From Patescibacteria group bacterium (GTDB lineage Bacteria; Patescibacteriota; Patescibacteriia; UBA1558; GWA2-36-10): 64,000 nucleotides of DNA. The notes under the pieces are model-generated. The model saw only the letters and a list, made by a program, of their open reading frames with translations. It was not told the DNA's origin and did no database searches. Of this stretch, positions 3,920-63,185 are shown piece by piece; the first letter of the stretch is position 1; each line of letters begins with the position of its first letter. The stretch is taken from positions 66,381 through 130,380 of the forward strand of contig JBAZSG010000001.1 of assembly GCA_041662585.1 (NCBI GenBank), given 5' to 3'. Position numbers and translations under genes: made by a program.

Positions 3920-4198
3920 ATGAACAAAGCTCAGCTCATAGAAACAGTCGCTATCAAGGCTGGTATCAGCAAAAAAGAGACTGAGGATGTCATCCAAGCC
4001 TTTGAAGACTTGGTAATCGAAAGATTAAGGGGAGGAAAAGAAGTAACCTTGACTGGTTTTGGTACTTTTTCAGCTAGAGAAAGACACGCTCGCATGGGTG
4101 TCAATCCTAGAAATCCAAAAGAACGGATTGAAATACCTAAGGTAGTAGTACCAAAATTTAAAGCTGGTAAAACTCTAAAAGACTCTCTAAAAAAATAA
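3920..4198 (+). CDS. hup: DNA-binding protein HU
   Basis: 92 aa, HU/IHF fold, GFGTFSARERHARMGVNPRNPKE arm motif. Confidence 0.9.
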   Translation: MNKAQLIETVAIKAGISKKETEDVIQAFEDLVIERLRGGKEVTLTGFGTFSARERHARMGVNPRNPKERIEIPKVVVPKFKAGKTLKDSLKK

Positions 4199-13565: not shown

Positions 13566-14342
13566 ATGTTAAAATATAAAAATCATTTAAAATCTATCAA
13601 ATTACAAACCTCTACTATAAAAAGCTATCTCTGGCATATAGATCAGTTTTTAAGCTGGCTTGATAAAGCAGAATTGACTGATAATAAACTAAAAGAATAT
13701 TTTCAATATTTATTGAAAAAATATAAACGTATAAATACCATTAATCTTCGCCTAAAAATAATAAATAATTACTTAAAGTTTTTAAATACTCCATTTCATA
13801 TTGATCTTCTCCCTAATGAAACTACCGGTATTAAAATATTAACTGCTCAAGAGCTTGATAAATTTTTAGAAAACCCTAATAAGTATAAGAATCTAATCGG
13901 ACTTAGAGATAAAGCTATTTTAGAATTACTTTACTCCTCTGGACTCAAAGTAGGGCAACTAGTAAAATTGAAAATATCTCAAATAGATGCTATAAAACAA
14001 GAAATATTTATAACTAAAAATAATTTTATAAAAATAAATCCTAGTACTTGGCTGTATTTAAAAAAATATTTAGACAAAAGAAATGATACTATAGATTATC
14101 TGTTTATAAATTTTGATAGATCAAACAAATCTGACAATAGATCATTAAGTATCCGCTCTGTTGAAAGGCTCATAAATAAATATGCCAAAAATATAAATCC
14201 CTCTGTAAATATAAATCCCCAAATATTAAGAAACACTCTGGCACACAGATTAAAATCTGAAGGTGCCCAAAGTGAACATATAAAATCAGCTCTACATTTT
14301 AAAACAAAAATAGCTGCTCAAAATTATTTAAATAAAATATAA
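13566..14342 (+). CDS. Tyrosine site-specific recombinase (XerD/integrase family, short form)
   Basis: N-terminal SAM-like domain, then box I LRDKAILELLYSSGLKVGQL, a LAHRL HxxR-type motif, and a C-terminal QNY catalytic Tyr. Confidence 0.7.
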   Translation: MLKYKNHLKSIKLQTSTIKSYLWHIDQFLSWLDKAELTDNKLKEYFQYLLKKYKRINTINLRLKIINNYLKFLNTPFHIDLLPNETTGIKILTAQELDKFLENPNKYKNLIGLRDKAILELLYSSGLKVGQLVKLKISQIDAIKQEIFITKNNFIKINPSTWLYLKKYLDKRNDTIDYLFINFDRSNKSDNRSLSIRSVERLINKYAKNINPSVNINPQILRNTLAHRLKSEGAQSEHIKSALHFKTKIAAQNYLNKI

Positions 14343-47458: not shown

Positions 47459-49303
47459 ATGACCAAAGTGAAAGAAAAGAAAAAAAATTTTCTCGCCCTA
47501 ATAATCTTGACTGTGGGATTGATCGCTCTGGCTTTTATTGTATTTGACTGGTTAATTACCAAAAATCCCACTCCAATCACCAATCCAGCCATTGAAACAC
47601 GAAATTGTCTTGATACTAGTGCCAAGTATTTGGATCCCAGCATTCCGATTGAAGACAGGATAACCGATTTGCTTGGCCGTATGACTGAGGCAGAAAAAAT
47701 CGGTCAATTGGGCTTGGTGGAAAAAAACAGCCTGATTAAAACACAACATATCGCTGATTACCACTTGGGTGCACTACTGAGCGGAGCAGGAGCAAAACCA
47801 AAACCAAATACGCCAGAAGCTTGGCTAAAAATGGTAGAAAATTTTGATGCCGCTACCTTAAATACCTGTCTAAAAATTCCCCTACTCTATGGCGTAGATG
47901 CCAACCATGGTCATGCCAATGTTCCAGGTGCAGTAGTTTTCCCACACGCCATTGGTCTAGGAGCAGCCAACGATACCGAACTAATCCGAAGAGTAGCACA
48001 GGCGACCAGAGAAGAGTTGCTGGCAACCGGCATTCGTTGGACTTTTGGCCCAGATCTGGATGTGACTAGAGACCTACGCTGGGGCAGAACTTATGAAACC
48101 TTTGGAAGTAATGCTCAAACAGTGACCGAACTAGGACGCGCTTATTTAAACGGCTTACAAAATCCCAATAGTGCTTGGCCAATGGTTTTGGGTACAGCCA
48201 AACACTATATCGGAACAGGTGCCATGACTTGGGGAACTTCAATTAATAGCAATTTTAAAATTGACCAAGGTGACAGTCAAATAAGCGAAGCTGAGTTGCG
48301 ATACACTCATTTACCACCATTTCAAGCGGCAATTGATGAAGGTGCCTTGAGTGTCATGGCCGGCTTAAATAAATGGCAAGGAAAAAATATGGCTACCCAA
48401 CGCTATCTATTGACCGATGTGCTAAAAAAAGAATTGGACTTTAAAGGTTTTGTAGTCTCTGATTGGTACGGCGTTTATGAAATTTCTAACAGCAAATATA
48501 AATCCCTGGTCACAGCAATAAATGCTGGGGTTGATATGATCATGTTACCGTTTGATTACCAACAATTTACCACAGACCTTCAAAAAGCTCTTCAAAACCA
48601 TGATATTAGCCAAACGCGACTAGATGATGCCGTCAGTAGAATTTTGCGAGCCAAATTTAGTTTGGGACTTTTTGATCAAAAGCCGACAAAAGTTGACCTT
48701 TCAATACTTGGCTCTTCAGTTCACCGTGAGTTGGCCAGAGAAGCTGTCCGTAAATCATTGGTAGAATTAAAAAACAAAAATAATACTTTGCCTCTAGCAA
48801 ATAATCTCCAGCGAATTGTAGTGGCTGGTTCGGCAGCTGATAATCTTGGTCAACAGATGGGTGCTTGGACTGTAGAATGGCAAGGTATCGACGGCAACTG
48901 GGTACCTGGTACTACTATTTTGTCGGGAATTAAACAGACTGTTTCAACTAATACGATAGTTGATTATAATCTCGAAGGAAAATTTACTAATACTGACGAC
49001 TTGGCTGATATAGGCATCGCCGTAGTTGGAGAAAAGCCTTACGCCGAAGGTTGGGGCGATAACCAATATCTAAAATTAAGTACCGAAGACCTAGTCAGAA
49101 TAAAAAGAGTCAAAGCTGCCAGTAAAAAATTGCTAGTAATTATTGTATCTGGTCGACCCTTGGACATTGGCACTGTAAGTAAAGATTGGGATGCAATCGT
49201 AGCTGCCTGGCTACCAGGTAGCGAAGGCTCTGGAGTAGCTGACGTGCTATTTGGTGATTATGATTTTGTCGGTCAACTGCCAGTTCCCTGGAATATAGAA
49301 TAA
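47459..49303 (+). CDS. Glycoside hydrolase family 3 (beta-glucosidase/beta-hexosaminidase-type), membrane-anchored
   Basis: KHYIGTG and VVSDWYG GH3 motifs. N-terminal TM. Confidence 0.88.
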   Translation: MTKVKEKKKNFLALIILTVGLIALAFIVFDWLITKNPTPITNPAIETRNCLDTSAKYLDPSIPIEDRITDLLGRMTEAEKIGQLGLVEKNSLIKTQHIADYHLGALLSGAGAKPKPNTPEAWLKMVENFDAATLNTCLKIPLLYGVDANHGHANVPGAVVFPHAIGLGAANDTELIRRVAQATREELLATGIRWTFGPDLDVTRDLRWGRTYETFGSNAQTVTELGRAYLNGLQNPNSAWPMVLGTAKHYIGTGAMTWGTSINSNFKIDQGDSQISEAELRYTHLPPFQAAIDEGALSVMAGLNKWQGKNMATQRYLLTDVLKKELDFKGFVVSDWYGVYEISNSKYKSLVTAINAGVDMIMLPFDYQQFTTDLQKALQNHDISQTRLDDAVSRILRAKFSLGLFDQKPTKVDLSILGSSVHRELAREAVRKSLVELKNKNNTLPLANNLQRIVVAGSAADNLGQQMGAWTVEWQGIDGNWVPGTTILSGIKQTVSTNTIVDYNLEGKFTNTDDLADIGIAVVGEKPYAEGWGDNQYLKLSTEDLVRIKRVKAASKKLLVIIVSGRPLDIGTVSKDWDAIVAAWLPGSEGSGVADVLFGDYDFVGQLPVPWNIE

Positions 49304-54058: not shown

Positions 54059-54326
54059 AATTTTATTTTAAATTTTAATATGTTTATTATACCACTTCTT
54101 TTTTCAAACAAAAAACCATTCCTTTTGAAATGATTCTTTAATGGGAATTATTTTCTAATTTTAGAATGTTGGAACTAGATATTGACAAAATGACTAATTT
54201 CTATTACTTTAATATATTCAAAAATCTAACTTTTGAATAAGTTCATTGACATCACCACCTGCCTAGAAATAGTGCAGATAAAACCACAAAGATCCGTAGT
54301 ATAGGATCAGTAAAAGGAGAAAGGCC

Positions 54327-55655
54327 ATGAAGGAAGTGTTTGTCACTGATCTAATCAACAACGGATCCCTCAATACCGAGGTCCAGTTGCAAGGTTGGAT
54401 CAAGAATCGCCGACACCACGGAAAACTCGTTTTTCTTGATGTCTGTGATTCCACTGGTATCATCCAGGTTGTCATAAACCGCGAAACAATTGATGAGGAC
54501 AGTTTCAATCTGGCAAAGAAAGCCAACCTCGAAACCTCTGTCAACATCAGGGGCACCCTGATCAACGGCAGTGGCAAGAGCCAACTCGACAGGGAGATCG
54601 TCGTACATGAGTTCAACATCATCGGAGAGGCAGAATCCATCTCGCCTGCTATCCGAGCGGATGATATTGACATCTCTAATCCTGGAAATGCTGATCACCT
54701 ACTGAAAAACCGCCACCTCTACATCCGCAATCCGCAGATCATCGCGGTCATGATTTTCAGGCACAGGATCATGCATTTCATCCGTGAGTGGTTCGTGAAG
54801 AACCGCTACATTGAAATCACAGCTCCGGTCCTGACCATGCTACCGCTCTACTCGGATGGCAGTGTCCTGCCTGTCGACATCAAAGGTGAGAAAGCCTACC
54901 TCACTCAGTGCGTGGGATTTTATTTGGAAGCTTCTGTTCATGCTCTGGAACGCGTCTACAACATGGGACCGTCTTTCAGAGGAGAAGAGAGCAGGAGTCT
55001 CCGACACCTGATGGAATACTGGCACATCAAAGGAGAGGCTGCCTTCGCCGATTTGGAAGATGCTATCCACACCGTGGAAAGCATCTTTAGTGAAACGGTG
55101 GAATTCTGCGAAAGGGAATGCCAAGATATCTTTGCTACCCTGGGCACTGAAATTCACACTGAAGGCAAGCTCATTCCATTCCCTCGCATCAGCTACCGCG
55201 AAGCCGGCGAGATGCTGAAAGCTGCCGGACTGCCTTTCGAGTTTGGTACTAGTCTTAGTACTACCGACGAGGAATTCCTGGCGGCGCAGTTCGACCGACC
55301 ATTCTGGGTTGTCGGCATTCCCCGCAAGATCGAACCATTCCCCTACGTCATTGACCCTGACGATCCTGAAATCACTAGAACAGCCGATCTCATCGCTTCC
55401 CGAGGATTCGGAGAGCTTCTCGGCGTCGCTGAGAAAATTTCCAACCTCGAAAGCCTTGACGAGAGACTCCGTGAAAAAGGCAAAGCTGGAGACGAAAACC
55501 ACGAATGGCTACGGGACATCAGAAAATACGGCTGTGTCCCGCACATTGGTTTTGGCATGGGTGTTGAACGTCTGCTCAGGTGGCTTCTAGACATCAGGCA
55601 CGTTCGTGATACTATGCCATTTCCACGAATCTTCCGTCGTAGAATTTACCCATAA
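54327..55655 (+). CDS. asnS: Asparaginyl-tRNA synthetase-like class IIb aaRS (about 50% GC, foreign composition)
   Basis: N-terminal OB-fold anticodon-binding domain, motif 2 GPSFRGEESRSLRHLMEYWHIKGE, motif 3 GFGMGVERLL. AAGGAG RBS 7 nt upstream. Confidence 0.8.
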   Translation: MKEVFVTDLINNGSLNTEVQLQGWIKNRRHHGKLVFLDVCDSTGIIQVVINRETIDEDSFNLAKKANLETSVNIRGTLINGSGKSQLDREIVVHEFNIIGEAESISPAIRADDIDISNPGNADHLLKNRHLYIRNPQIIAVMIFRHRIMHFIREWFVKNRYIEITAPVLTMLPLYSDGSVLPVDIKGEKAYLTQCVGFYLEASVHALERVYNMGPSFRGEESRSLRHLMEYWHIKGEAAFADLEDAIHTVESIFSETVEFCERECQDIFATLGTEIHTEGKLIPFPRISYREAGEMLKAAGLPFEFGTSLSTTDEEFLAAQFDRPFWVVGIPRKIEPFPYVIDPDDPEITRTADLIASRGFGELLGVAEKISNLESLDERLREKGKAGDENHEWLRDIRKYGCVPHIGFGMGVERLLRWLLDIRHVRDTMPFPRIFRRRIYP

Positions 55656-55676
55656 AAATAGAAAGAGGTAACAACC

Positions 55677-56984
55677 GTGAAAAGAATACTAATCGGCAAT
55701 CTCCAACAGATGCCTAGTGGCCAGATGGTCACCATCTGTGGCTGGTTGCATTCTCTGCGCAAGCAGAAGAATATGATCTTCGCAGTGGTCAGAGACTATA
55801 CTGGTCTTGTCCAGTTGTCCTACTTCCGCGGTGACAACCAGTTGAATATCGAGAAAGCCCTCGAACAGCTTACTGTCGAATCAGCAATCATCGTCACCGG
55901 TGAACTGCTGACCAATGAAGCGGTCAAGCTCGGTGGCAAGGAAATCAAGCCAGAGACAATCAAGATCGTCTCGCTGGCCGAATCTCCCCTGCCGCTTTCG
56001 GACAAATCGCCCTTGGACACTCGTCTGGACTGGCGTTTCCTCGACCTTCGCAAGGAGAAACAACAACTCATTATGCGAGTCCAGACTGTTGCCGAACATG
56101 CCATGCGCCTGTTCTGGCAACAAGAAGGATTCGTCGAGATACACTCTCCCAAACTGATGGGAAGCTCCAGCGAATCCGGCAGTGAACTGTTCCGTCTGCC
56201 CTACTTCGGCGGCGAAGCCTTCTTGGCCCAGTCACCTCAGTTTTTCAAGCAGATGGCTATGGCTGCCGGCCTAGAACGCGTTTTCGAGATTGGTCCGGTG
56301 TTCCGAGCCAACAAGTCCCACACTGTCCGCCATGACACGGAATTTACCAGCGTGGATGTCGAGTTCTCCTGGATCGAGTCCCATCACGAAGTGATGGAGC
56401 TCGAGGAAAGGTGGCTTTGTTTCGTCATTGCCTACATCAAGGACAAACTTGGTGAGCAGATCACCAATCTCTTCGGTGTTGAAGTGGTTGTTCCTCAACT
56501 TCCTTTCCCTAGAGTGACGATGGTCGAAGCTCAGAACATCGTCGCTCAACGAGGTCATATTTGCGAACGCAAAGATGACCTCGACCCCGAAGGCGAAAGG
56601 CAACTCAGCTCCTACATCATGGGGAAGTTCGGACACCAAATGGTGTTCGTAACTGACTACCCCACCGAAGTTAGACCTTTCTATCACATGAGGCCGACAC
56701 ACAACCCCGAACTGACCAACAGCTTCGACCTTCTGTGGAAGGGGCTCGAAGTCACCACTGGGGCTCAGCGAGAACATCGTTACGATGTCCTGCGTCAACA
56801 AGCCGTCGACAAGGGTCTCGAACTGGAACCCATCCGATTCTATCTGGACTTCTTCCGCTACGGCATGCCGCCGCACGGAGGATACGGTTTCGGTCTCACC
56901 CGTATGCTTATGGTACTCCTCGGACTATCCAATGTCCGCGAGGTCACCTACGTATATCGTGGTGTCAACAGACTGACTCCCTAA
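55677..56984 (+). CDS. aspS: Aspartyl-tRNA synthetase, archaeal/eukaryal short type (about 50% GC)
   Basis: OB fold, QSPQFFKQ AspRS signature, GPVFRANKSHTVRHDTEFT, GGYGFGLTRM. Confidence 0.8.
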   Translation: MKRILIGNLQQMPSGQMVTICGWLHSLRKQKNMIFAVVRDYTGLVQLSYFRGDNQLNIEKALEQLTVESAIIVTGELLTNEAVKLGGKEIKPETIKIVSLAESPLPLSDKSPLDTRLDWRFLDLRKEKQQLIMRVQTVAEHAMRLFWQQEGFVEIHSPKLMGSSSESGSELFRLPYFGGEAFLAQSPQFFKQMAMAAGLERVFEIGPVFRANKSHTVRHDTEFTSVDVEFSWIESHHEVMELEERWLCFVIAYIKDKLGEQITNLFGVEVVVPQLPFPRVTMVEAQNIVAQRGHICERKDDLDPEGERQLSSYIMGKFGHQMVFVTDYPTEVRPFYHMRPTHNPELTNSFDLLWKGLEVTTGAQREHRYDVLRQQAVDKGLELEPIRFYLDFFRYGMPPHGGYGFGLTRMLMVLLGLSNVREVTYVYRGVNRLTP

Positions 56985-57001
56985 CATAGGAGACACGACC
57001 C

Positions 57002-57046
57002 AAGAGGGGCCTAGCATCATTTGCCGGGCCCCTCTTCTTTTTTTAT
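57002..57046 (+). terminator. GC-rich intrinsic terminator after aspS
   Basis: aagaggggcc...ggcccctctt followed by a T-run. Confidence 0.75.
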
Positions 57047-57050
57047 AAAC

Positions 57051-57800
57051 TTATAATTCTGATATAGCGTGAAATTTATTTTCTTTTTTCAACTTATGTT
57101 TAAAGTATTTTCCATCTTTCCAATATATTTTGTATACATTAGCAAATTTCCTAGAACTAATAATTCTAAACATGCCATCAACTATTTCAATTGCGGCACA
57201 ATTTTCTGCAGCTAGAGCAAAACCAGAAATTTTTTTCATCCTTTCTTTTATATCAATTTGTCTATCCTTCTCAAAATCATAATGAGGAGAAAATAAAGCA
57301 TTGACTATACCTAAGCCCGAGACAGTTATATATGGGACTTTTTTATTAGTAAATTTTTTTGCATCACTCTGACCATATTTAAACCAACAAATAGCGCCAG
57401 CACTCAAACCAGAAAGAACTATCCCTTTACTATACGCTTCTATAAGTAGCCTATCTACTCCAAATTTTCGCCAAGTTTTCATCATCTTTAAAGTGTTGCC
57501 TCCTCCTACATATATAACGTCCGCATTGAGAATTTTATTTTTCAATTCTTTTTTTGTATATTTATTTTTTATTAAAAGCAAAGATGAAACTTTAGCTCCT
57601 AATTTTCCCCCAAAATAATTATTAATTACATCTATATACCCTTGAGCGTCTGAACTAGCAGTAGGAATAAAAAGCAAATTTGGACTCTTTTTGCCCGAGA
57701 GCTTGATAACCTCTTTATCTATTGCTAATGTCTCTATTTTATAGCCAGGTCGGCCTATTTCTCCACCACCGATAGCTATTATTTTTTTTGTCTTTTCCAT
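57051..57800 (-). CDS. Peptidase S51 family (dipeptidase E/cyanophycinase-like)
   Basis: IGGG...LFIPTAS...YVGGGNT...SGLSAGA. Host-like AT-rich composition. Confidence 0.7.
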   Translation of the reverse strand: MEKTKKIIAIGGGEIGRPGYKIETLAIDKEVIKLSGKKSPNLLFIPTASSDAQGYIDVINNYFGGKLGAKVSSLLLIKNKYTKKELKNKILNADVIYVGGGNTLKMMKTWRKFGVDRLLIEAYSKGIVLSGLSAGAICWFKYGQSDAKKFTNKKVPYITVSGLGIVNALFSPHYDFEKDRQIDIKERMKKISGFALAAENCAAIEIVDGMFRIISSRKFANVYKIYWKDGKYFKHKLKKENKFHAISEL

Positions 57801-57947
57801 AAAAAAATTATAGCAAAAAATCGCTATTATTCAAATATGTAACTATAAAGCCTAAAACTTTACAAAATGTAACAATCATGATAATTATAGTAATAATTAA
57901 AAAAATTTTAATGTACCTTGAAACCTTCATCATTTAGGAGGGATACC

Positions 57948-58970
57948 ATGTCTGAAGCCAGAGACAACATAGAGCACGGCCTCACTATCACCAAAAGAGA
58001 GCTGGCTAAACGTGATGAAATTCTCGCCTACCTGCCCGAAATCATCATAGACGCGCATGCTCACGCCGGACTTGAAGAGCAGGTCGGTCAGATTGACCCC
58101 AGAACCATGCAGCACATGATGACGACATTCCCCTTCTTCAGTCTAGAAGACTCGGCCCGAATGAACAGCCTATTCTTTACGGGAAAACTGGTGCATACCT
58201 TGCGCTTTGCCATCCCGTGGAGAGGCATAGATCATCGGTCTGCTAACCAGTACCTGCTGAAAAACAGTCCACCCTCAGATAGGGTTGCCCTTTGTGGCAT
58301 CCCTGATGACCCGGACTATACAATAAACCAATTGTGCAGAAAAAAATACTGCGCACTAAAAATGTATGTCAGATACTTTGAACCCCCGGCAACCAGAATA
58401 TACGAATTTTTTCTGCCTGAGATACTGGAAGAAGCGCAAGTTCTGGACATTCCAATAATACTGCATCTGCCGGCTATGATCACCAAGTGTATTGATGATT
58501 TGGATAGGTGCTTATCGGACTTTCCCAAGCTACGGGTAGTGCTAGCTCACCTGGGCCTACCTCATCTACCCATACCAGGATTAGCAGAAGCTTACGATCA
58601 ATTCGCGAGCTACCCTCAAGTGTCCATGGATACGGCAATGATCCCTTCCAAAGAAGTGGTCGCTCTGGCTCTAAAAGCTTTCGGCCACGATCGAATAATG
58701 TACGGTTCCGATCAACCTCTGAACATACTAAGGCAAGTCGTCTATCACCACCCTGAAAAGGGAGAAAGAATAGTGACGCATCGTCGCTACCACTGGAGTG
58801 ATTCACTAGAACACGAACAATACGGCCACCTGGCTGTTGGTGCCGTGCACTCGCATTGGCAATGCTTAGAATCTCTGCTGGAAGGAATCAAACAAATATT
58901 CCCCAGCTCCGAAGCTGAAGCGCGTCGCAATATATTCTGCGCTAATGCGCGGAAAATGTTCGACTTCTAA
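57948..58970 (+). CDS. Amidohydrolase-2 (TIM-barrel metal-dependent hydrolase) family protein (about 50% GC)
   Basis: IIDAHAHAG, VLAHLG, MYGSDQP motifs. AGGAGG RBS. Start taken at MSEARD. Confidence 0.7.
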   Translation: MSEARDNIEHGLTITKRELAKRDEILAYLPEIIIDAHAHAGLEEQVGQIDPRTMQHMMTTFPFFSLEDSARMNSLFFTGKLVHTLRFAIPWRGIDHRSANQYLLKNSPPSDRVALCGIPDDPDYTINQLCRKKYCALKMYVRYFEPPATRIYEFFLPEILEEAQVLDIPIILHLPAMITKCIDDLDRCLSDFPKLRVVLAHLGLPHLPIPGLAEAYDQFASYPQVSMDTAMIPSKEVVALALKAFGHDRIMYGSDQPLNILRQVVYHHPEKGERIVTHRRYHWSDSLEHEQYGHLAVGAVHSHWQCLESLLEGIKQIFPSSEAEARRNIFCANARKMFDF

Positions 58971-58982
58971 ACACGGTACGGT

Positions 58983-59023
58983 AAGGGGGATTCGCCTAAA
59001 AATGAACCCCCCTTGTTTTATTA
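58983..59023 (+). terminator. Intrinsic terminator after the amidohydrolase gene
   Basis: aaggggg...ccccctt plus a T-run. Confidence 0.7.
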
Positions 59024-59065
59024 TTAAAATTCTACAATTTTTTGTAACTCGTACTGTCAAAAAAA

Positions 59066-59101
59066 CAAAAACAAGTTTATAAAAATATAAACTTGTTTTT
59101 G
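59066..59101. repeat. Perfect 16-bp-arm palindrome (caaaaacaagtttata-aaaa-tataaacttgtttttg)
   Basis: Seen directly. It occupies the same position as the terminator hairpins of the other cassettes. Confidence 0.8.
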
Positions 59102-59133
59102 TTGGAATCCTCTGTGGAATAAATTCCGAACCT
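59102..59133 (-). repeat. Degenerate tRNA-His 3'-end copy (fragment E)
   Basis: The minus-strand reading AAGGTTCGGAATTTATTCCACAGAGGATTCCA aligns with the tRNA-His T-arm and acceptor 3' half. Confidence 0.5.
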
Positions 59134-59137
59134 TTTG

Positions 59138-59494
59138 TTATCGTTTGTTATAAAATAAATAAATTGGAAGTACTATATCAAATATGATTATTGCTAAAAA
59201 TATTTTGTTTTTTAAAATATTTTTTTTATACATCTTATAATATAATATTGCTATTATAACGAAAGAAACGATTAGTATGGGGATGCCCCAAATTAAATAT
59301 CCTAACCAAGCCCAAAATATGCCGTCATCAGAATTTCCTCTCAACATATTAAGAAGTCCTGCTAAAACGAAATACTTACCTACGAAATACGTACCTACAA
59401 TAACTGGCAGTACAAAAAGGATAAGAAGCCCCCGTAAACCATTAAATTTTTTTGCTGGTCCTAAATTTTTATCAACCTGATTTAATTCTTTCAT
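59138..59494 (-). CDS. Small polytopic membrane protein
   Basis: 3 TM. Confidence 0.45.
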   Translation of the reverse strand: MKELNQVDKNLGPAKKFNGLRGLLILFVLPVIVGTYFVGKYFVLAGLLNMLRGNSDDGIFWAWLGYLIWGIPILIVSFVIIAILYYKMYKKNILKNKIFLAIIIFDIVLPIYLFYNKR

Positions 59495-59503
59495 AATTTT
59501 ATT

Positions 59504-59767
59504 TTAATCTTCTAATAATTCTATTTGTTGGCATTGATTATTATCACAATAACAAGCAAAGGGCTGTGGTAAATATAAAATATCTATACCACCAATTTTT
59601 ATTGGTTTCCTACTCCAACATCCTGATAAAATACCTCCACTGATTTTTTTACAATCTAAATCCTGGCTACAATTTTTACTACCTCCAAAACTAAAAGATG
59701 TAAACAACCATATGTAAATAAATATGCCAATTAAAATTATGATTAAAATCAATAGAATCTTTTTCAT
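59504..59767 (-). CDS. Membrane-anchored 6-Cys domain protein (paralog of the N-domain of 36652..37302)
   Basis: FTSFSFGGSKNCSQDLDCKKISGGILSGCWSRKPIKIG...C.C.NNQC, about 65% identical to the 37-kb copy. Confidence 0.55.
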   Translation of the reverse strand: MKKILLILIIILIGIFIYIWLFTSFSFGGSKNCSQDLDCKKISGGILSGCWSRKPIKIGGIDILYLPQPFACYCDNNQCQQIELLED

Positions 59768-59826
59768 AATATAATTATACCACCTATTTTTAAAACAAAA
59801 AACTAGCTATTATTAGCTAATTCTCT

Positions 59827-59888
59827 GATGGATCCCTTATAGCCTGCCTGCCGGCAGGCAGGGACGAATTCAGAACCCTAGATTGGAG
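59827..59888 (-). repeat. Degenerate tRNA-His 3'-end copy (fragment C) interrupted by a 20-bp GC palindrome cctgcctgccggcaggcagg
   Basis: gatgg..ccctt...gaattcagaaccctagattgg, with the palindrome at 59843..59862. Confidence 0.6.
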
Positions 59889-59908
59889 CAAGTTGCAACA
59901 CAGTATTC

Positions 59909-60997
59909 CTAACTTATCTTTTTAACCACACCGTTATCAGCATCTACTTCTATTTTATCGCCATTCTTAAAAATTTTAGTAGCCTCTTTTGTATCAATTA
60001 TACAAGGAATTTTTAACTCACGAGATACTATAGCAGCATGAGAAAGCATGCCACCTTGATCTGCTACAATAGCTGAAGCTTTTTTACACAATGGTAGCCA
60101 ATCAGGACTGGTAGACTCGGCAATTAAAATATCACCTTTCTTCATTTGTTTATCCATCAATTTTACTTTTTTTATATCATAAAACATAGGAGCAATTATG
60201 GCTCTGCCAACTACTTTGCCCTTAAAAGCTGTTCTGCCTTTTAATATTGTTGTTTTGGAAGCCAAGGTGAAGTTTTTATAAAGTTCTAAAGACTGTTTAT
60301 AAGAAAAAGTTTTGATACTATTATTTTGATTTATGGCGCTATAACATTTTTTTCTTTGTTCAATTAAATTTTTAGGAATTTTTTTACCATCAAAAATATT
60401 TAATATTTCATTTGAATATAGGAATCTTCCATCATAATCATATTTCAAAAAATATTTCAATAAATTTTCAAAAACACCCCCTTTAAAAAAATAGTTGTTT
60501 AGTAATTCTCTGCCGTGAAATTTAAACTTGGCTGCTTGAAGTAGATTATTTTTAACTGTTTTAGCTTTATTTTTATCTAAAGAATCTAAATCTATTTCTT
60601 GATAAGGAAATTCGACAAAACCATAATAATACCAAAACTGGGCTAAAAAATTTCTAATTTTTATAAATTCTCTCCTGTTTAATATTTCGGGTGTTTTGTT
60701 ATATTTAGATATTATTTCTTTATTTGCTTTATTAACATAATCTTTAAAATCTTTTAAATATCTTTTAAATCTTGCTTCATTTCCATACAAACACAACCCT
60801 TCTTTAGAAAAATACTTCAAATTATTTTTACTAATAAAAGTATAATAATCTTTATCTTTATGTATAACTAACATCCCCTTGCCCAAAGAACTTGTTAATA
60901 AAAACTCACTATGAAGACAGGTAATAATACCCTTAGTAACAAAAAATCTCACAAAATTATTTGGTGTTATCTTGATTAATTCTATATCCTTTTTCAT
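59909..60997 (-). CDS. Protein with a C-terminal PEP-utilising-enzyme mobile (phosphohistidine swivel) domain and an uncharacterised N-domain
   Basis: C-terminal GGMLSHAAIVSRELKIPCIID...VDADNGVVKKIS. Confidence 0.65.
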   Translation of the reverse strand: MKKDIELIKITPNNFVRFFVTKGIITCLHSEFLLTSSLGKGMLVIHKDKDYYTFISKNNLKYFSKEGLCLYGNEARFKRYLKDFKDYVNKANKEIISKYNKTPEILNRREFIKIRNFLAQFWYYYGFVEFPYQEIDLDSLDKNKAKTVKNNLLQAAKFKFHGRELLNNYFFKGGVFENLLKYFLKYDYDGRFLYSNEILNIFDGKKIPKNLIEQRKKCYSAINQNNSIKTFSYKQSLELYKNFTLASKTTILKGRTAFKGKVVGRAIIAPMFYDIKKVKLMDKQMKKGDILIAESTSPDWLPLCKKASAIVADQGGMLSHAAIVSRELKIPCIIDTKEATKIFKNGDKIEVDADNGVVKKIS

Positions 60998-61077
60998 TAT
61001 TTTAATTCAAATTTTAATATATTAATTATACCACTTATTTTTAAAACAAAAAACGAGCTAAAATTAGCTCACTTTTT

Positions 61078-61120
61078 GATGGGGTCCCTTGTGGGAGGAA
61101 TTCCGAACCCTAGACTGGTC
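61078..61120 (-). repeat. Degenerate tRNA-His 3'-end copy (fragment A)
   Basis: The minus-strand reading TAGGGTTCGGAATTCCTCCCACAAGGGACCCCATC compares with the tRNA-His sequence GAGGGTTCAATTCCCTCTGGGCACCCCATC. Confidence 0.65.
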
Positions 61121-61138
61121 AAAATTACAAAATAGTTA

Positions 61139-61357
61139 TTAGCTTAATTTTTTAACTTTTAAATAATCATATATAGCCGCTACTGTAAAAATTATCTGTA
61201 AAATTATAAAAATTATATCATCAATATAAATACTATACATTTCTAAACATAAACCTCCTAAAATATAATATATATCTTGGCTCTTTCTTCTTTTTGTTAT
61301 GATACCAATAGAAATTAGTAGAATGCCTAAGGCGCCGATGATTTTAAATATGTCCAT
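61139..61357 (-). CDS. Small membrane protein (72 aa)
   Basis: Two TM. Preceded by TTGACC-17-TATAAT with the ATG 6 nt after the -10 (leaderless). Confidence 0.45.
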   Translation of the reverse strand: MDIFKIIGALGILLISIGIITKRRKSQDIYYILGGLCLEMYSIYIDDIIFIILQIIFTVAAIYDYLKVKKLS

Positions 61358-61363
61358 AAAATA

Positions 61364-61392
61364 ATTATAATTCTATTCCCATTTTGGGTCAA
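61364..61392 (-). promoter_or_regulatory. Near-consensus sigma-70 promoter (TTGACC-17-TATAAT) for the leaderless small gene
   Basis: The minus strand reads tttgacc caaaatgggaatagaat tataat. Confidence 0.55.
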
Positions 61393-61424
61393 ACAAAAAA
61401 CAAGCTAAGATTAGCTCACTTTTT

Positions 61425-61470
61425 GATGGAGTCCCTTGTGGGATGAATTCAGAACCCTAGATTGGGGTAA
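61425..61470 (-). repeat. Degenerate tRNA-His 3'-end copy (fragment B)
   Basis: gatggagtcccttgtgggatgaattcagaaccctagattgggg. Confidence 0.65.
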
Positions 61471-61487
61471 ATTACAATATAATATTC

Positions 61488-62936
61488 CTAATTTAACTTT
61501 TTAACTACACCATTATCAGCGTCTACTTCTACTTTATCACCATCTTTTAATACTTGTGTGGCTATTTTGGTGCCAATAATACAAGGTATGCCTAATTCAC
61601 GTGATACTATAGCAGCGTGACAAGTAATTCCTCCTTCATCAGTTATAATAGCAGCTGCTTTTTTCATAGCTGGAGCCATCTCTGGACGAGTCATAGAAGA
61701 AACTAATATATCGCCCTCATCCATATTGATCATATCGTGAATTTTTAAAATAATTTTAACAACACCCTGAGCTTTCCCTTTAGAAGCAACCACTCCTTTT
61801 AACTCTTCTGTTACGCCTTTTTTATTTTGATAAAAATCCAAAAGTTCTTTAACAGTTTTACCAGATATAATTTCATAAGAATTTGGAGTCTGAATACAAA
61901 CACACATTTCTTTTCTGCCTTCTAACTCTTCTTTATCAATTTTTTTAGCTAAAACTTTACGAAATTCTGAATAAACTGAGTAGGTTAATAAATCAAAAGG
62001 GACTTTTGTGCGTTTTTCAACCTCGCGTAAAAACTTAAATTGATAATAATTAGCCATTAAAACATACTTTTTTCTAGTGTCCTGAATACCAAAAAATTCA
62101 TCCATCATATCTATCAGCGAAAGATTCCACTTAGATAGTTTTAATTCTTTAATTAACCCTTCTCTTTCCTTTAGAATGCTTTCTCTAGTTTTAGATGGTG
62201 TGTGATCTATGAGTTTTTTAAAATCCTGATAAATTATTTTGGAAAAATCATCAACTGTTAGATAATTTCCTTTAGCATAATTATTTTGAATATAGAAATA
62301 CTTAGCTGAATGCTGTTCTAATTTATCTAGTGGTATTTTTTTGCCGTCTTTTAAGTATTGTAGTAATTTTTCTCTATCCACCTGTTCTTCTTCAATGAAA
62401 GAAATGTGTTTGGTGGTTATTAATTTAGGAAATATCTCATTAAATCTGTTTCCTAGTATTTTTTCAAACTCAGGAATAATATAACGGTCAGCGTGCATAG
62501 ATACCGCATCACCCAAAGTCATAAAATAAGTAAATTGTTCTAAATATGCCTCGTAAAAACTATCATATAATAATGCTAGTTCTTCATCATTTAATTTTTC
62601 TAAATTTATCTTATCTACTTTATCAATAACTGATTCAAAATCATTTATTTTCTTATACCAATCGTTTTGTATTTTTTTTAAATAATTTTTATCTTTTTTT
62701 AAATTATCTAAAAATAAATTACGTACCCTATCTAAGTCATTATCATTCCAATACCAGTGAACATAATCATTAGTAACAAAAAAGAGAGTTATGGTACTAG
62801 AATCACCATATATCTTTTTCATAGGAAAACCAGTTTGTCCTACTGGAAAGAAAGTGTGTAATACACCGTGAAAGCCTTTATATGTCCAGGTAGATTGGTC
62901 TATCTTATACTTACTTATAATTTCTTCTACTTTCAT
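61488..62936 (-). CDS. Paralogous protein with a C-terminal PEP-utilising-enzyme mobile domain (482 aa)
   Basis: C-terminal GGITCHAAIVSRELGIPCIIG...VDADNGVVKKLN. Preceded by an extended -10 ttggtataat 9 nt from the ATG. Confidence 0.65.
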   Translation of the reverse strand: MKVEEIISKYKIDQSTWTYKGFHGVLHTFFPVGQTGFPMKKIYGDSSTITLFFVTNDYVHWYWNDNDLDRVRNLFLDNLKKDKNYLKKIQNDWYKKINDFESVIDKVDKINLEKLNDEELALLYDSFYEAYLEQFTYFMTLGDAVSMHADRYIIPEFEKILGNRFNEIFPKLITTKHISFIEEEQVDREKLLQYLKDGKKIPLDKLEQHSAKYFYIQNNYAKGNYLTVDDFSKIIYQDFKKLIDHTPSKTRESILKEREGLIKELKLSKWNLSLIDMMDEFFGIQDTRKKYVLMANYYQFKFLREVEKRTKVPFDLLTYSVYSEFRKVLAKKIDKEELEGRKEMCVCIQTPNSYEIISGKTVKELLDFYQNKKGVTEELKGVVASKGKAQGVVKIILKIHDMINMDEGDILVSSMTRPEMAPAMKKAAAIITDEGGITCHAAIVSRELGIPCIIGTKIATQVLKDGDKVEVDADNGVVKKLN

Positions 62937-62984
62937 AAATAAATTATACCAAATTATATTTTAGTTCGATACCCCATTAGGGCG

Positions 62985-63013
62985 TATCAAAAAATAAGCT
63001 AACCTTAGCTTAT
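62985..63013 (-). terminator. Hairpin ataagcta/tagcttat + T-run immediately 3' of tRNA-His
   Basis: 8-bp stem flanked by T-runs on both strands. Confidence 0.55.
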
Positions 63014-63020
63014 TTTTTGA

Positions 63021-63096
63021 TGGGGTGCCCAGAGGGAATTGAACCCTCATTAGCGGTACCACAAACCGCTGTGTTAACCATTACACCATGGGCACC
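63021..63096 (-). tRNA. tRNA-His (anticodon GTG) with encoded G-1 and CCA
   Basis: Hand-folded cloverleaf. G-1:C73 pair, D-stem GTGT/ACAC, anticodon loop TTGTGGT, T-arm GAGGG-TTCAATT-CCCTC, 3' CCA. Confidence 0.88.
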
Positions 63097-63110
63097 ATAT
63101 GAATAAATAT

Positions 63111-63185
63111 GGTGCTCCCAGTAGGAATCGAACCTACATCTACGGCTTAGAAGGCCGCTGTTCTATCCGTTGAACTATAGGAGCA
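63111..63185 (-). tRNA. tRNA-Arg (anticodon TCT) with encoded CCA
   Basis: Acceptor GCTCCTA/TGGGAGC, anticodon loop CTTCTAA, T-loop TTCGATT. Confidence 0.88.

Follow-up and report, generated by a model that had tools for sequence, protein, structure and literature searches.

An array of repeat-bounded genes inserted at the exact 3′ end of a tRNA-His gene in Patescibacteria

The Patescibacteria, or Candidate Phyla Radiation (CPR), have tiny genomes, and the way in which they gain accessory genes is poorly understood. The stretch of DNA considered here (64,000 nucleotides of contig JBAZSG010000001.1, assembly GCA_041662585.1; hereafter the window) is AT-rich, at ~33% GC, and is part of a 702-kb Patescibacteria contig. 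It carries an intact tRNA-His gene and, downstream of this, four co-oriented gene units on the minus strand, each of which ends in a short repeat (copies A, B, C and D, counted outwards from the tRNA). A first-pass annotation, made from the sequence of the window, regarded the repeats as degraded copies of the tRNA-His 3′ end and the units as cassettes inserted there. What are these repeats, and how did the genes that they bound come to lie beside the tRNA? Comparison with relatives places the array at a nucleotide-precise CCCA site of tRNA-His: on one side of it synteny is conserved, and on the other the DNA is different in each of the relatives examined. The repeats are assigned to a family of sequence arms, X1, that is also found in other genomes.

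Insertion at the 3′ end of tRNA-His

Loci of relatives were retrieved by way of ribulose-phosphate epimerase (Rpe), an anchor upstream of the tRNAs. The upstream gene order is conserved among them (POR ... HisKA-Rpe-RpiB-130aa-tRNA-Arg-tRNA-His); the tRNA-Arg/tRNA-His pair is also present in L014/L031, L029, L033, L036 and L038, and upstream synteny ends at the pair. L014 and L031, together with L006, belong to isolate SO_2016_GW1_35 (SO_GW1). In L036 the site is empty, the CCA of tRNA-His being joined straight to GCAAAAACAAGCTTATATTTTTATAAGCTTG..., the orthologue of the sequence that follows the CCA of copy D in the window. These two flanks share 115 identical bases over 128/132, compared with 77/131 for a control flank. 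The interval 63020-59103 (3.9 kb) has therefore been inserted at the tRNA end, and copy D takes the position of the tRNA-His 3′ end. The genome P0127, in which the tRNAs are inferred from a 307-nt gap, has the gene order of L036; in both, the genes after the tRNAs encode Amidohydro_2, a methyltransferase, an S51 peptidase and AspRS. The array is an insertion at the exact 3′ end of tRNA-His, with precise boundaries, and in this respect the first-pass annotation was correct.

The features of the locus, in window coordinates, are listed below (aa, amino acids; PEP, phosphoenolpyruvate).

63110..63184, minus strand: tRNA-Arg(TCT); ARAGORN and Rfam, 73.8 bits
63021..63096, minus strand: intact tRNA-His(GTG), 63021-63095 plus G-1 at 63096; CCA encoded; 65.2 bits
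63021-63025, minus strand: 3′-terminal CCCCA of tRNA-His, the proximal boundary of the inserted array, attL-like, from the empty-site comparison
62937..63020, minus strand: junction 1, with a bidirectional type-1 terminator (62986-63020), a hairpin (62958-62985) and an extended -10 TGGTATAAT (62943-62951)
61488..62936, minus strand: cassette 1 (PEP1), 482 aa, PEP-utilizers swivel domain only (Pfam PF00391, E=4e-27)
61427..61490, minus strand: repeat copy A (X1), ending CTCCA; antisense peptide WSPLWDEFRTLDWGKLQYNIPNLTF, then a stop; nhmmer E=7e-14 to 2e-25
61358..61426, minus strand: junction after A, with a type-1 terminator (61393-61426) followed by a degenerate inverted copy of the repeat that bears -35 TTGACC and -10 TATAAT
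61139..61357, minus strand: cassette 2, a 72-aa predicted membrane protein, no family match
61080..61137, minus strand: repeat copy B (X1), ending CCCCA; antisense peptide WGPLWEEFRTLDWSKLQNSY, then a stop
60998..61079, minus strand: junction after B, with a type-1 terminator (61046-61079) and promoter TGGTATAAT (61025-61033)
59909..60997, minus strand: cassette 3, 362 aa, PEP-swivel domain only (Pfam)
59829..59911, minus strand: repeat copy C (X1), interrupted after TCCC by a GC palindrome of 20 nt (59843-59862)
59768..59828, minus strand: junction after C, with a type-1 terminator (59795-59828) and promoter TGGTATAAT (59774-59782)
59138..59767, minus strand: cassette 4, two genes, for an 87-aa Cys-rich protein (59504-59767) and a 118-aa membrane protein (59138-59494)
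59103..59135, minus strand: repeat copy D (diverged X1), ending TTCCA, the distal boundary, attR-like; antisense WNPLWNKFRT...
58971..59102, minus strand: flank after D, orthologous to the DNA directly after the L036 tRNA-His; type-2 terminator (59064-59102) and amidohydrolase terminator
54143..58970 (54143-59102 with the flank), no strand assigned: GC-rich island with two AspRS-like genes, an S51 peptidase and Amidohydro_2

From 63020 down to 59103 the array consists of units of 0.35-1.6 kb, each with the same order of parts: terminator, own promoter, gene or genes, an X1 arm of ~65 nt and CCCA. There are five CCA-ended junctions. Pfam and open reading frames confirm the gene content first described (two PEP-swivel proteins, the 72-aa membrane protein, and the Cys-rich protein with its membrane protein); the intact tRNA-His, recognised by ARAGORN and Rfam, and the palindrome in copy C are likewise as annotated. 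The nearest homologues of PEP1 are Patescibacteria proteins of 59-70% identity, while the 118-aa membrane protein is an orphan, its only match among 5.8e9 sequences being itself. After each of copies A-C come a hairpin with a T-run and then TGGTATAAT, an arrangement that the first-pass annotation had extended to all four copies; copy D is followed by a hairpin and T-run and then by a convergent gene, with no promoter. Every cassette has TGGTATAAT and a terminator ahead of it. Terminators of type 1 (GAGCTAA..TTAGCTC) follow the tRNA, A, B and C, and the one after D is of type 2, as is that of the L036 tRNA-His.

Extended -10 sites of the form TGGTATAAT lie at 62943-62951, 61025-61033, 59774-59782 and 54086-54094, and the promoter module recurs at unrelated window loci. 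Conservation of the junction promoter was considered as evidence of a mobile module and was down-weighted, because the same consensus is found at those unrelated loci. At 62943-62951 the site ends 6 nt ahead of the PEP1 ATG; its location 6-7 nt ahead of the ATG at two genes suggests that their mRNAs are leaderless. On the far side of two terminators, at 62958-62985 (repeat I23) and 61364-61392, are degenerate inverted copies of the repeat, which make of the junction a long imperfect palindrome; the next promoter takes its -35 TTGACC from the copy at 61364-61392. The same layout is seen after the tRNA-His of L029 and after Kom2 in L013, which with L005 represents Candidatus Komeilibacteria RIFOXYD1_FULL_37_29. 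Junction 1 is homologous to the junction between Kom2 and AKR (aldo-keto reductase) of L013 and to the L029 tRNA-His flank.

Six configurations are found downstream of tRNA-His, namely those of the window, L036, L031, L029, L033 and L038. In SO_GW1 the tRNA is followed by an operon running from a helix-turn-helix (HTH) gene to DsbD and ending in X1, and then by three more junctions at which CCCCA meets a terminator. The neighbour is a convergent radical-SAM gene in L029, a C39 peptidase in L033, and a recombinase with SIR2- and NucS-like genes in L038. Since the downstream DNA is absent or different in relatives, foreign genes have landed at the tRNA-His end repeatedly, which makes it an insertion hot spot with different cargo in each relative. 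Neither outcome that was to tell against the first-pass reading was seen: downstream of the tRNA the relatives do not share the window's gene order, and in the DNA scanned the repeat is not dispersed genome-wide. The comparison across relatives reveals presence or absence of the array as a whole; separate entry of individual cassettes, their gain or loss and their excision were not observed.

The GC-rich island that lies beyond copy D appears to have a similar history. Its GC content is 0.48-0.53 compared with 0.33 for the window, the S51 peptidase gene itself being AT-rich. The island proteins are 91-98% identical to those of L036, whereas Rpe is 72% and the core ~72% identical, and the homology between window and L036 stops at ...CCCA on both sides. 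These identities and ends indicate that the island is another recently transferred insert at the same site, and that the AT-rich array was inserted between it and the tRNA. The two AspRS/AsnRS-like genes of the island are 98% and 27% identical to the single AspRS of L036, and are apparently distant paralogues.

The repeats and their relation to tRNA-His

The core of the repeat, GAATTCMGAACCCTAGAYTGG, occurs three times (59866, 61098 and 61445), with 0 occurrences expected in 100 shuffles. Searched with an nhmmer profile, the window yields A (61393-61470), B (61046-61123) and C (59795-59891), all with E 1e-21 to 1e-25. Copy D is weak (59096-59132, E=3e-4, up to 2e-3) and lacks the core, so that the common core first ascribed to four fragments belongs to A, B and C. 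Neither nhmmer nor inspection of all 3′ flanks revealed further copies in the window. The repeat was also inspected by eye for a dif/Xer-like or symmetric core site, and no convincing dyad was found.

Resemblance to tRNA-His depends on how it is measured. A profile of the full unit matches the 3′ end of tRNA-His and the adjoining terminator (E=3.6e-9), a score largely due to the common terminator; the tRNA-like 44 nt alone gave no nhmmer match to tRNA-His at E<=100. An Rfam search of 58-64 kb at E<=10 returned the two true tRNAs only and left the repeats unmatched, by the tRNA model included. Gapped pairwise alignment of the repeats against shuffles gave z=3.5-5.4 for tRNA-His and z=0.9-2.6 for tRNA-Arg. 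The identity with tRNA-His is confined to the terminal (C)CCCA and a weak gapped T-arm-like stretch; A-C end in (C/T)(C/T)CCA and D in TTCCA. The T-arm and acceptor likeness reported at first is therefore present in pairwise comparison, but it is modest, and the Rfam tRNA model is silent on it. The X1 arm also has 5 extra nt, relative to tRNA-His, between the common AGGGTTC/AATTCC block and GGG.ACCCCA.

Homologues of the repeat were collected from one scan each of genome and metagenome collections. X1 is present in Komeilibacteria RIFOXYD1_FULL_37_29, in SO_2016_GW1_35 and in two short Patescibacteria contigs, L012 and L017, which with the window makes at least 5 Patescibacteria genomes or contigs. 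All members share the consensus CCARTCTAGGGTTCNGAATTCNTCCC...GGGAYCCCA, with 26 invariant nt. Across genomes the copies have derived traits in common (the 5-nt longer spacing, a CCAATCTA block and a GAATTC block) and they are far closer to each other than each is to the tRNA-His in its genome. Between the window and SO_GW1, X1 is ~88% identical by manual count, compared with 0.34-0.59 identity at the fourfold-degenerate sites of orthologues, indicating that the element is constrained or recently exchanged.

The repeats are therefore not tRNA-His copies that decayed within this genome. Tandem duplication of the tRNA region could have left decayed pseudogene fragments with no recombination function, and such an origin would be in keeping with the pairwise similarity (z=3.5-5.4) and with the ending (C)CCCA of all copies, which is the C72-C73-CCA hallmark of tRNA-His. 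Independent decay would not, however, converge on the derived features that copies in different genomes have in common. Cross-genome conservation thus largely refutes this origin, which we regard as the least probable of those considered.

A second family of arms, X2, occurs in SO_GW1, at the far end of the L036 GC island and in L017. Arrays of junctions between CCCCA and a terminator, with X1 or X2 arms, are found in L031 (4 junctions), L013 (5-6), L012 (2) and L017 (2), and in four other genomes or contigs X1 and X2 arms adjoin unrelated genes. The Komeilibacteria array runs PEP-swivel, X1, His-phosphatase, PEP-swivel, X1, aldo-keto reductase, degenerate copy, ..., X1, HAD hydrolase, weak copy. 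Upstream of it (L013 9738-12669; L005 2520-2830) are genes for an RVT_1 reverse transcriptase of 305 aa, a PD-(D/E)XK-like protein of 248 aa and a 415-aa protein, a region that may be a retron- or defence-type system, and ~300 nt of apparently non-coding DNA precede the first cassette. The tandem PEP-swivel clusters of L022, L023 and L025, from other Patescibacteria, have no X1 element. In L022 (1576-10555) and L023 (3347-8883) proteins with only the PEP-swivel domain are encoded by 4-5 tightly packed tandem paralogues, L022 having in addition a His_Phos_1 gene and a separate PPDK_N gene; these clusters look like a split and expanded PEP-synthase/Rph-like phosphotransferase system.

The finding of ~150-nt junction modules common to several genomes, beside unrelated genes, would suit a dispersed repeat resembling a miniature inverted-repeat transposable element (MITE) or a repetitive extragenic palindrome (REP), inserting at terminators and bringing a terminator and promoter with it. 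The degenerate inverted copies that flank some terminators would suit it too. However, copies elsewhere in the 64 kb are absent, an exact-pattern scan gave only 1-2 copies per other genome, and the module has neither terminal inverted repeats nor target duplications, all its copies lying in one orientation in local arrays. A repeat of this kind is very improbable here.

A role in RNA is also improbable, although it deserves a little more weight. All copies are sense-oriented, 0-30 nt after a stop codon and just ahead of a terminator, and their core is conserved beyond neutral expectation, as might be expected of a tRNA-like 3′ untranslated structure that acts in mRNA stabilisation, processing or protein binding. 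GC-rich stems occur at an identical position of the repeat in two genomes: the 20-nt perfect palindrome CCTGCCTGCCGGCAGGCAGG in copy C and a 26-nt stem-loop in L012 (~4072-4110). That they fall at the same point of a possible hairpin would again suit an RNA. Against this stand the lack of any Rfam match, single-sequence folds that are no stabler than shuffles (z -1.6 to +1.2), and 0 compensatory pairs in the proposed helices by RNAalifold and explicit pair counts. A functional RNA would also leave the empty site and the CCCA boundaries unexplained, and the variable positions of the repeat fit the codon third positions of an antisense reading frame, described in the next section. The GC stems are unexplained by that coding frame and are accounted for by no explanation tested.

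A recombinase frame and the origin of the array

At the tRNA-His end of L038, on the strand opposite the tRNA, lies a gene for a 543-aa large serine recombinase (Resolvase + Recombinase + Zn_ribbon_recom). The protein ends ...LLWGAQRESNPH before its stop codon; its last 11 codons are antisense to the 3′ end of tRNA-His, and TGG GGT (ACCCCA on the tRNA strand) is in frame. Its best scores are to the XisF and CcrB/CcrC models, far below their cut-offs, and it has no true viral, phage or plasmid matches in the collections searched. The units of the window were first described as carrying no integrase of their own; none is found in the array, and the L038 enzyme shows that a serine recombinase does occur at the same tRNA end in a relative. 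The island that holds it (L038 1-6736) also contains SIR2_2 and NucS_C-like genes, which look like defence cargo, and its distal end is off the contig.

When the junctions were translated antisense from TGGGG in the frame of the L038 recombinase, X1 gave a conserved peptide (WGPLWDEFRTLDW...), WGPLW(D/E)EFRTLDW(S/G)KLQYSIP..., and X2 gave WG.LVKA(I/V)GTK.F.ELDN.Y. The X2 copies SO2 and L036far differ in 11 codons: 5 of the changes are synonymous, 6 are conservative and none is radical, whereas the other two frames give 1 synonymous and 6-8 radical changes. Between the X1 copies winB and SO3, 5 of the 9 changed codons are synonymous. In an antisense codon permutation test the signal is confined to the L038-recombinase frame (p<0.0005). 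The only related match to the peptide is P0243, a JGI contig of 3374 nt with a 78-aa predicted protein in which MDEFRTLDW occurs twice, 50 residues apart. It is probably an open reading frame called across two antisense repeat copies 150 nt apart, and hints at arrays of junctions with no intervening gene.

For large serine integrases, the distance between the crossover and the outer zinc-ribbon motif is 5 bp greater in attP than in attB (PMC3783163). The 5-nt extra spacing of X1 fits this attP/attB geometry, a correspondence that is suggestive only; a matching motif was looked for on the other half-site of X1 and was not found.

With moderate confidence, we take the 3.9 kb to be of foreign origin and to have come in through site-specific recombination at the CCCA of tRNA-His, by tandem accretion of integrase-less cassettes, the repeats being the element-side arms of attachment sites. 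The tRNA-His CCCA end would then be a recurrent attachment site in this Patescibacteria lineage, at which new units enter beside the tRNA and push older ones outwards. What look like tRNA fragments would be the element-side (P) arms and not decayed tRNA. In autonomous relatives the recombinase gene would cross attP antisense, with its last 20-30 codons within the arm, and integration would replace this C-terminal tail with tRNA antisense. The arm at the far junction would thus be the detached C-terminal tail of a recombinase, and on this proposal the arm is conserved between genomes because the recombinase coding frame runs through it. Cassettes that have no recombinase would need the enzyme in trans, or would now be fixed. 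If so, the tails may belong to a recombinase of the L038 type, each cassette may have entered separately, and the units may still be mobile. A bolder version, that the tRNA-His CCCA is a cassette-capture platform where a serine recombinase gene spans its own attP and swaps its tail on integration, and where minimal enzyme-less one-gene cassettes are exchanged in trans, is offered tentatively and is a doubtful one.

Several observations weigh against site-specific accretion. The array neither contains nor adjoins a recombinase gene (none within 10 kb, by Pfam tables covering the whole window), and the sole recombinase of the 64 kb is a Xer-like tyrosine recombinase ~45 kb away. No full-length protein with an X1 peptide tail was found by profile search among 1.84e9 representatives, and neither the DNA core, the back-translated peptide nor the peptide itself has a true viral, phage or plasmid match in the collections searched, so that the link between tail and recombinase comes from the L038 frame alone. 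The Komeilibacteria array has no tRNA in its 12.9 kb (none within 5.7 kb upstream), and its distal end abuts not a tRNA but a GH3 terminator, GCCA being followed directly by TCTAAAAAC. Two of the four PEP1-bearing contigs were read; they are 100% identical over 11.6 kb, the second being from another sample, and neither cassette-level polymorphism nor a circular form appears in them. Units of 0.35-1.6 kb with their own promoters are atypical of integrative elements. Finally, homology runs beyond the repeats into genes. The last ~170 nt of cassette 3 and its 3′ flank are homologous to their counterpart in cassette 1 (repeat D1), so that copies A and C are alike into the 3′ ends of the PEP-swivel genes (225 nt, 78% identity), and two Komeilibacteria copies are identical at 58/60 positions across gene ends (the last 55 coding nt plus the element). 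Such homology implies that duplication or gene conversion shaped the array.

Two side observations concern genes named above. The tyrosine recombinase (258 aa, 13566-14342, plus strand) lies beside rpsO and pnp, and its best models are XerA/XerD, far below their cut-offs; it is probably a housekeeping Xer rather than an island integrase. The GH3 glycosidase (window 47459-49303; L013 1-861) has 87% protein identity between window and Komeilibacteria, with fourfold sites at 0.72 and a terminator in common. The Komeilibacteria cassette array stops exactly at that terminator, as does an unrelated 219-aa gene in the window.

The history that the duplications call to mind is a serious rival to accretion: a single island may have entered once at tRNA-His, either site-specifically or by homologous recombination through the tRNA and GC-island flanks, and copies A-C may have arisen within it by tandem duplication and gene conversion of a PEP-swivel gene together with its 3′ flank, terminator and promoter, the units not being individually mobile. 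We judge this unlikely on the whole, while granting it real weight. It would account for the A/C homology, which runs into the coding 3′ ends and shows rising identity, and for the near-identical gene ends of Komeilibacteria paralogues that are otherwise 40-50% identical. Tandem clusters of PEP-swivel paralogues exist elsewhere, the contigs read show no polymorphism of single cassettes, and the promoter part of the junctions follows a general consensus used elsewhere in the window, all of which agree with one entry. It sits less easily with copy B, which follows the unrelated 72-aa gene, and copy D, which follows the unrelated 118-aa gene, or with X1 and X2 arms beside unrelated genes in four other genomes or contigs. 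Synonymous change in one antisense frame is unexpected from neutral decay of duplicates, and the terminator type changes exactly at D. Accretion by site-specific recombination is still preferred.

The choice between the two matters. If units were inserted singly by a serine recombinase acting in trans, the locus would be a compact gene-capture system, an analogue on a tRNA end of the integron or of the staphylococcal cassette chromosome (SCC), and integron-like arrays of self-expressed genes would exist in genomes deemed poor in mobile elements. The X1/X2 arms would then provide a sequence handle for accessory-gene arrays in CPR metagenomes. If it was instead a one-off island reshaped by duplication, it would be an ordinary tRNA-linked island.

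Comparison with known systems

The first-pass annotation had raised the possibility of an integron-like array. Cassettes of one or two genes in one direction, each with a recombination-site-like 3′ repeat, and a newest unit that possibly lies beside the primary site, do recall an integron. But the primary site here is a tRNA end, and intI, attI and a cassette promoter (Pc) are absent; the one tyrosine recombinase in the Pfam tables for the whole window, the Xer-like enzyme, reaches 23 bits on the integron-integrase model (cut-off 265). Each cassette has its own promoter and terminator, whereas integron cassettes are mostly promoterless, and the repeat is conserved in sequence and not in folded structure as attC is (0 compensatory pairs, thus no attC-like covariation). 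The array is not an integron.

With genomic islands at tRNA genes the array shares insertion at a tRNA 3′ end, a distal boundary resembling that end, and a variable region next to a conserved tRNA. It differs in that the identity to the tRNA is limited to CCCA and a weak gapped likeness, that no integrase is adjacent, and that junctions follow each other at a spacing of less than 2 kb.

The integrase genes of the archaeal viruses of the SSV (Sulfolobus spindle-shaped virus) group contain attP and are split on integration into a tRNA gene, a process known as ‘gene capture’. The proposed arrangement is similar in that the recombinase frame crosses the attachment site and overlaps the tRNA 3′ region, and in that a coding fragment would be detached at the far end of the insert. 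The SSV enzyme is a tyrosine recombinase split near its N-terminus, whereas a serine recombinase is the candidate in the present case and the part in question is a C-terminal tail of 20-30 codons.

In staphylococci, SCC elements are moved by the large serine recombinases CcrAB or CcrC, and ccr-less pseudo-SCC cassettes occur in tandem at the 3′ end of rlmH (orfX). In both systems the insertions lie at the very 3′ end of a conserved gene and build up tandem arrays; several of the units have no recombinase, and short integration-site repeats stand between them. The enzyme class may also be shared, the L038 recombinase scoring best against XisF and Ccr models, albeit far below the cut-offs. The target here is a tRNA gene in place of rlmH, and the units are single-gene cassettes of 0.35-1.6 kb with their own terminator and promoter. 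Moreover, the repeats include an arm of ~65 nt with an antisense coding signature, and the recombinase is absent from the 64-kb window and found at the same tRNA end in L038.

Accretion of ICEs (integrative, conjugative elements) and cis-mobilisable elements (CIMEs) at tRNA or other att sites offers a further parallel, for example in the streptococcal ICESt elements (PMC5704250). In such accretion, att-flanked elements without an integrase pile up in tandem beside the target gene and could be mobilised in trans, much as is proposed for the cassettes. Those elements use tyrosine integrases and longer exact direct repeats, range from kilobases to tens of kilobases in size, and are not known to have a coding tail in the att arm. 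Of the systems compared, ccr-less SCC composite islands and CIME accretion come nearest to the array in their logic.

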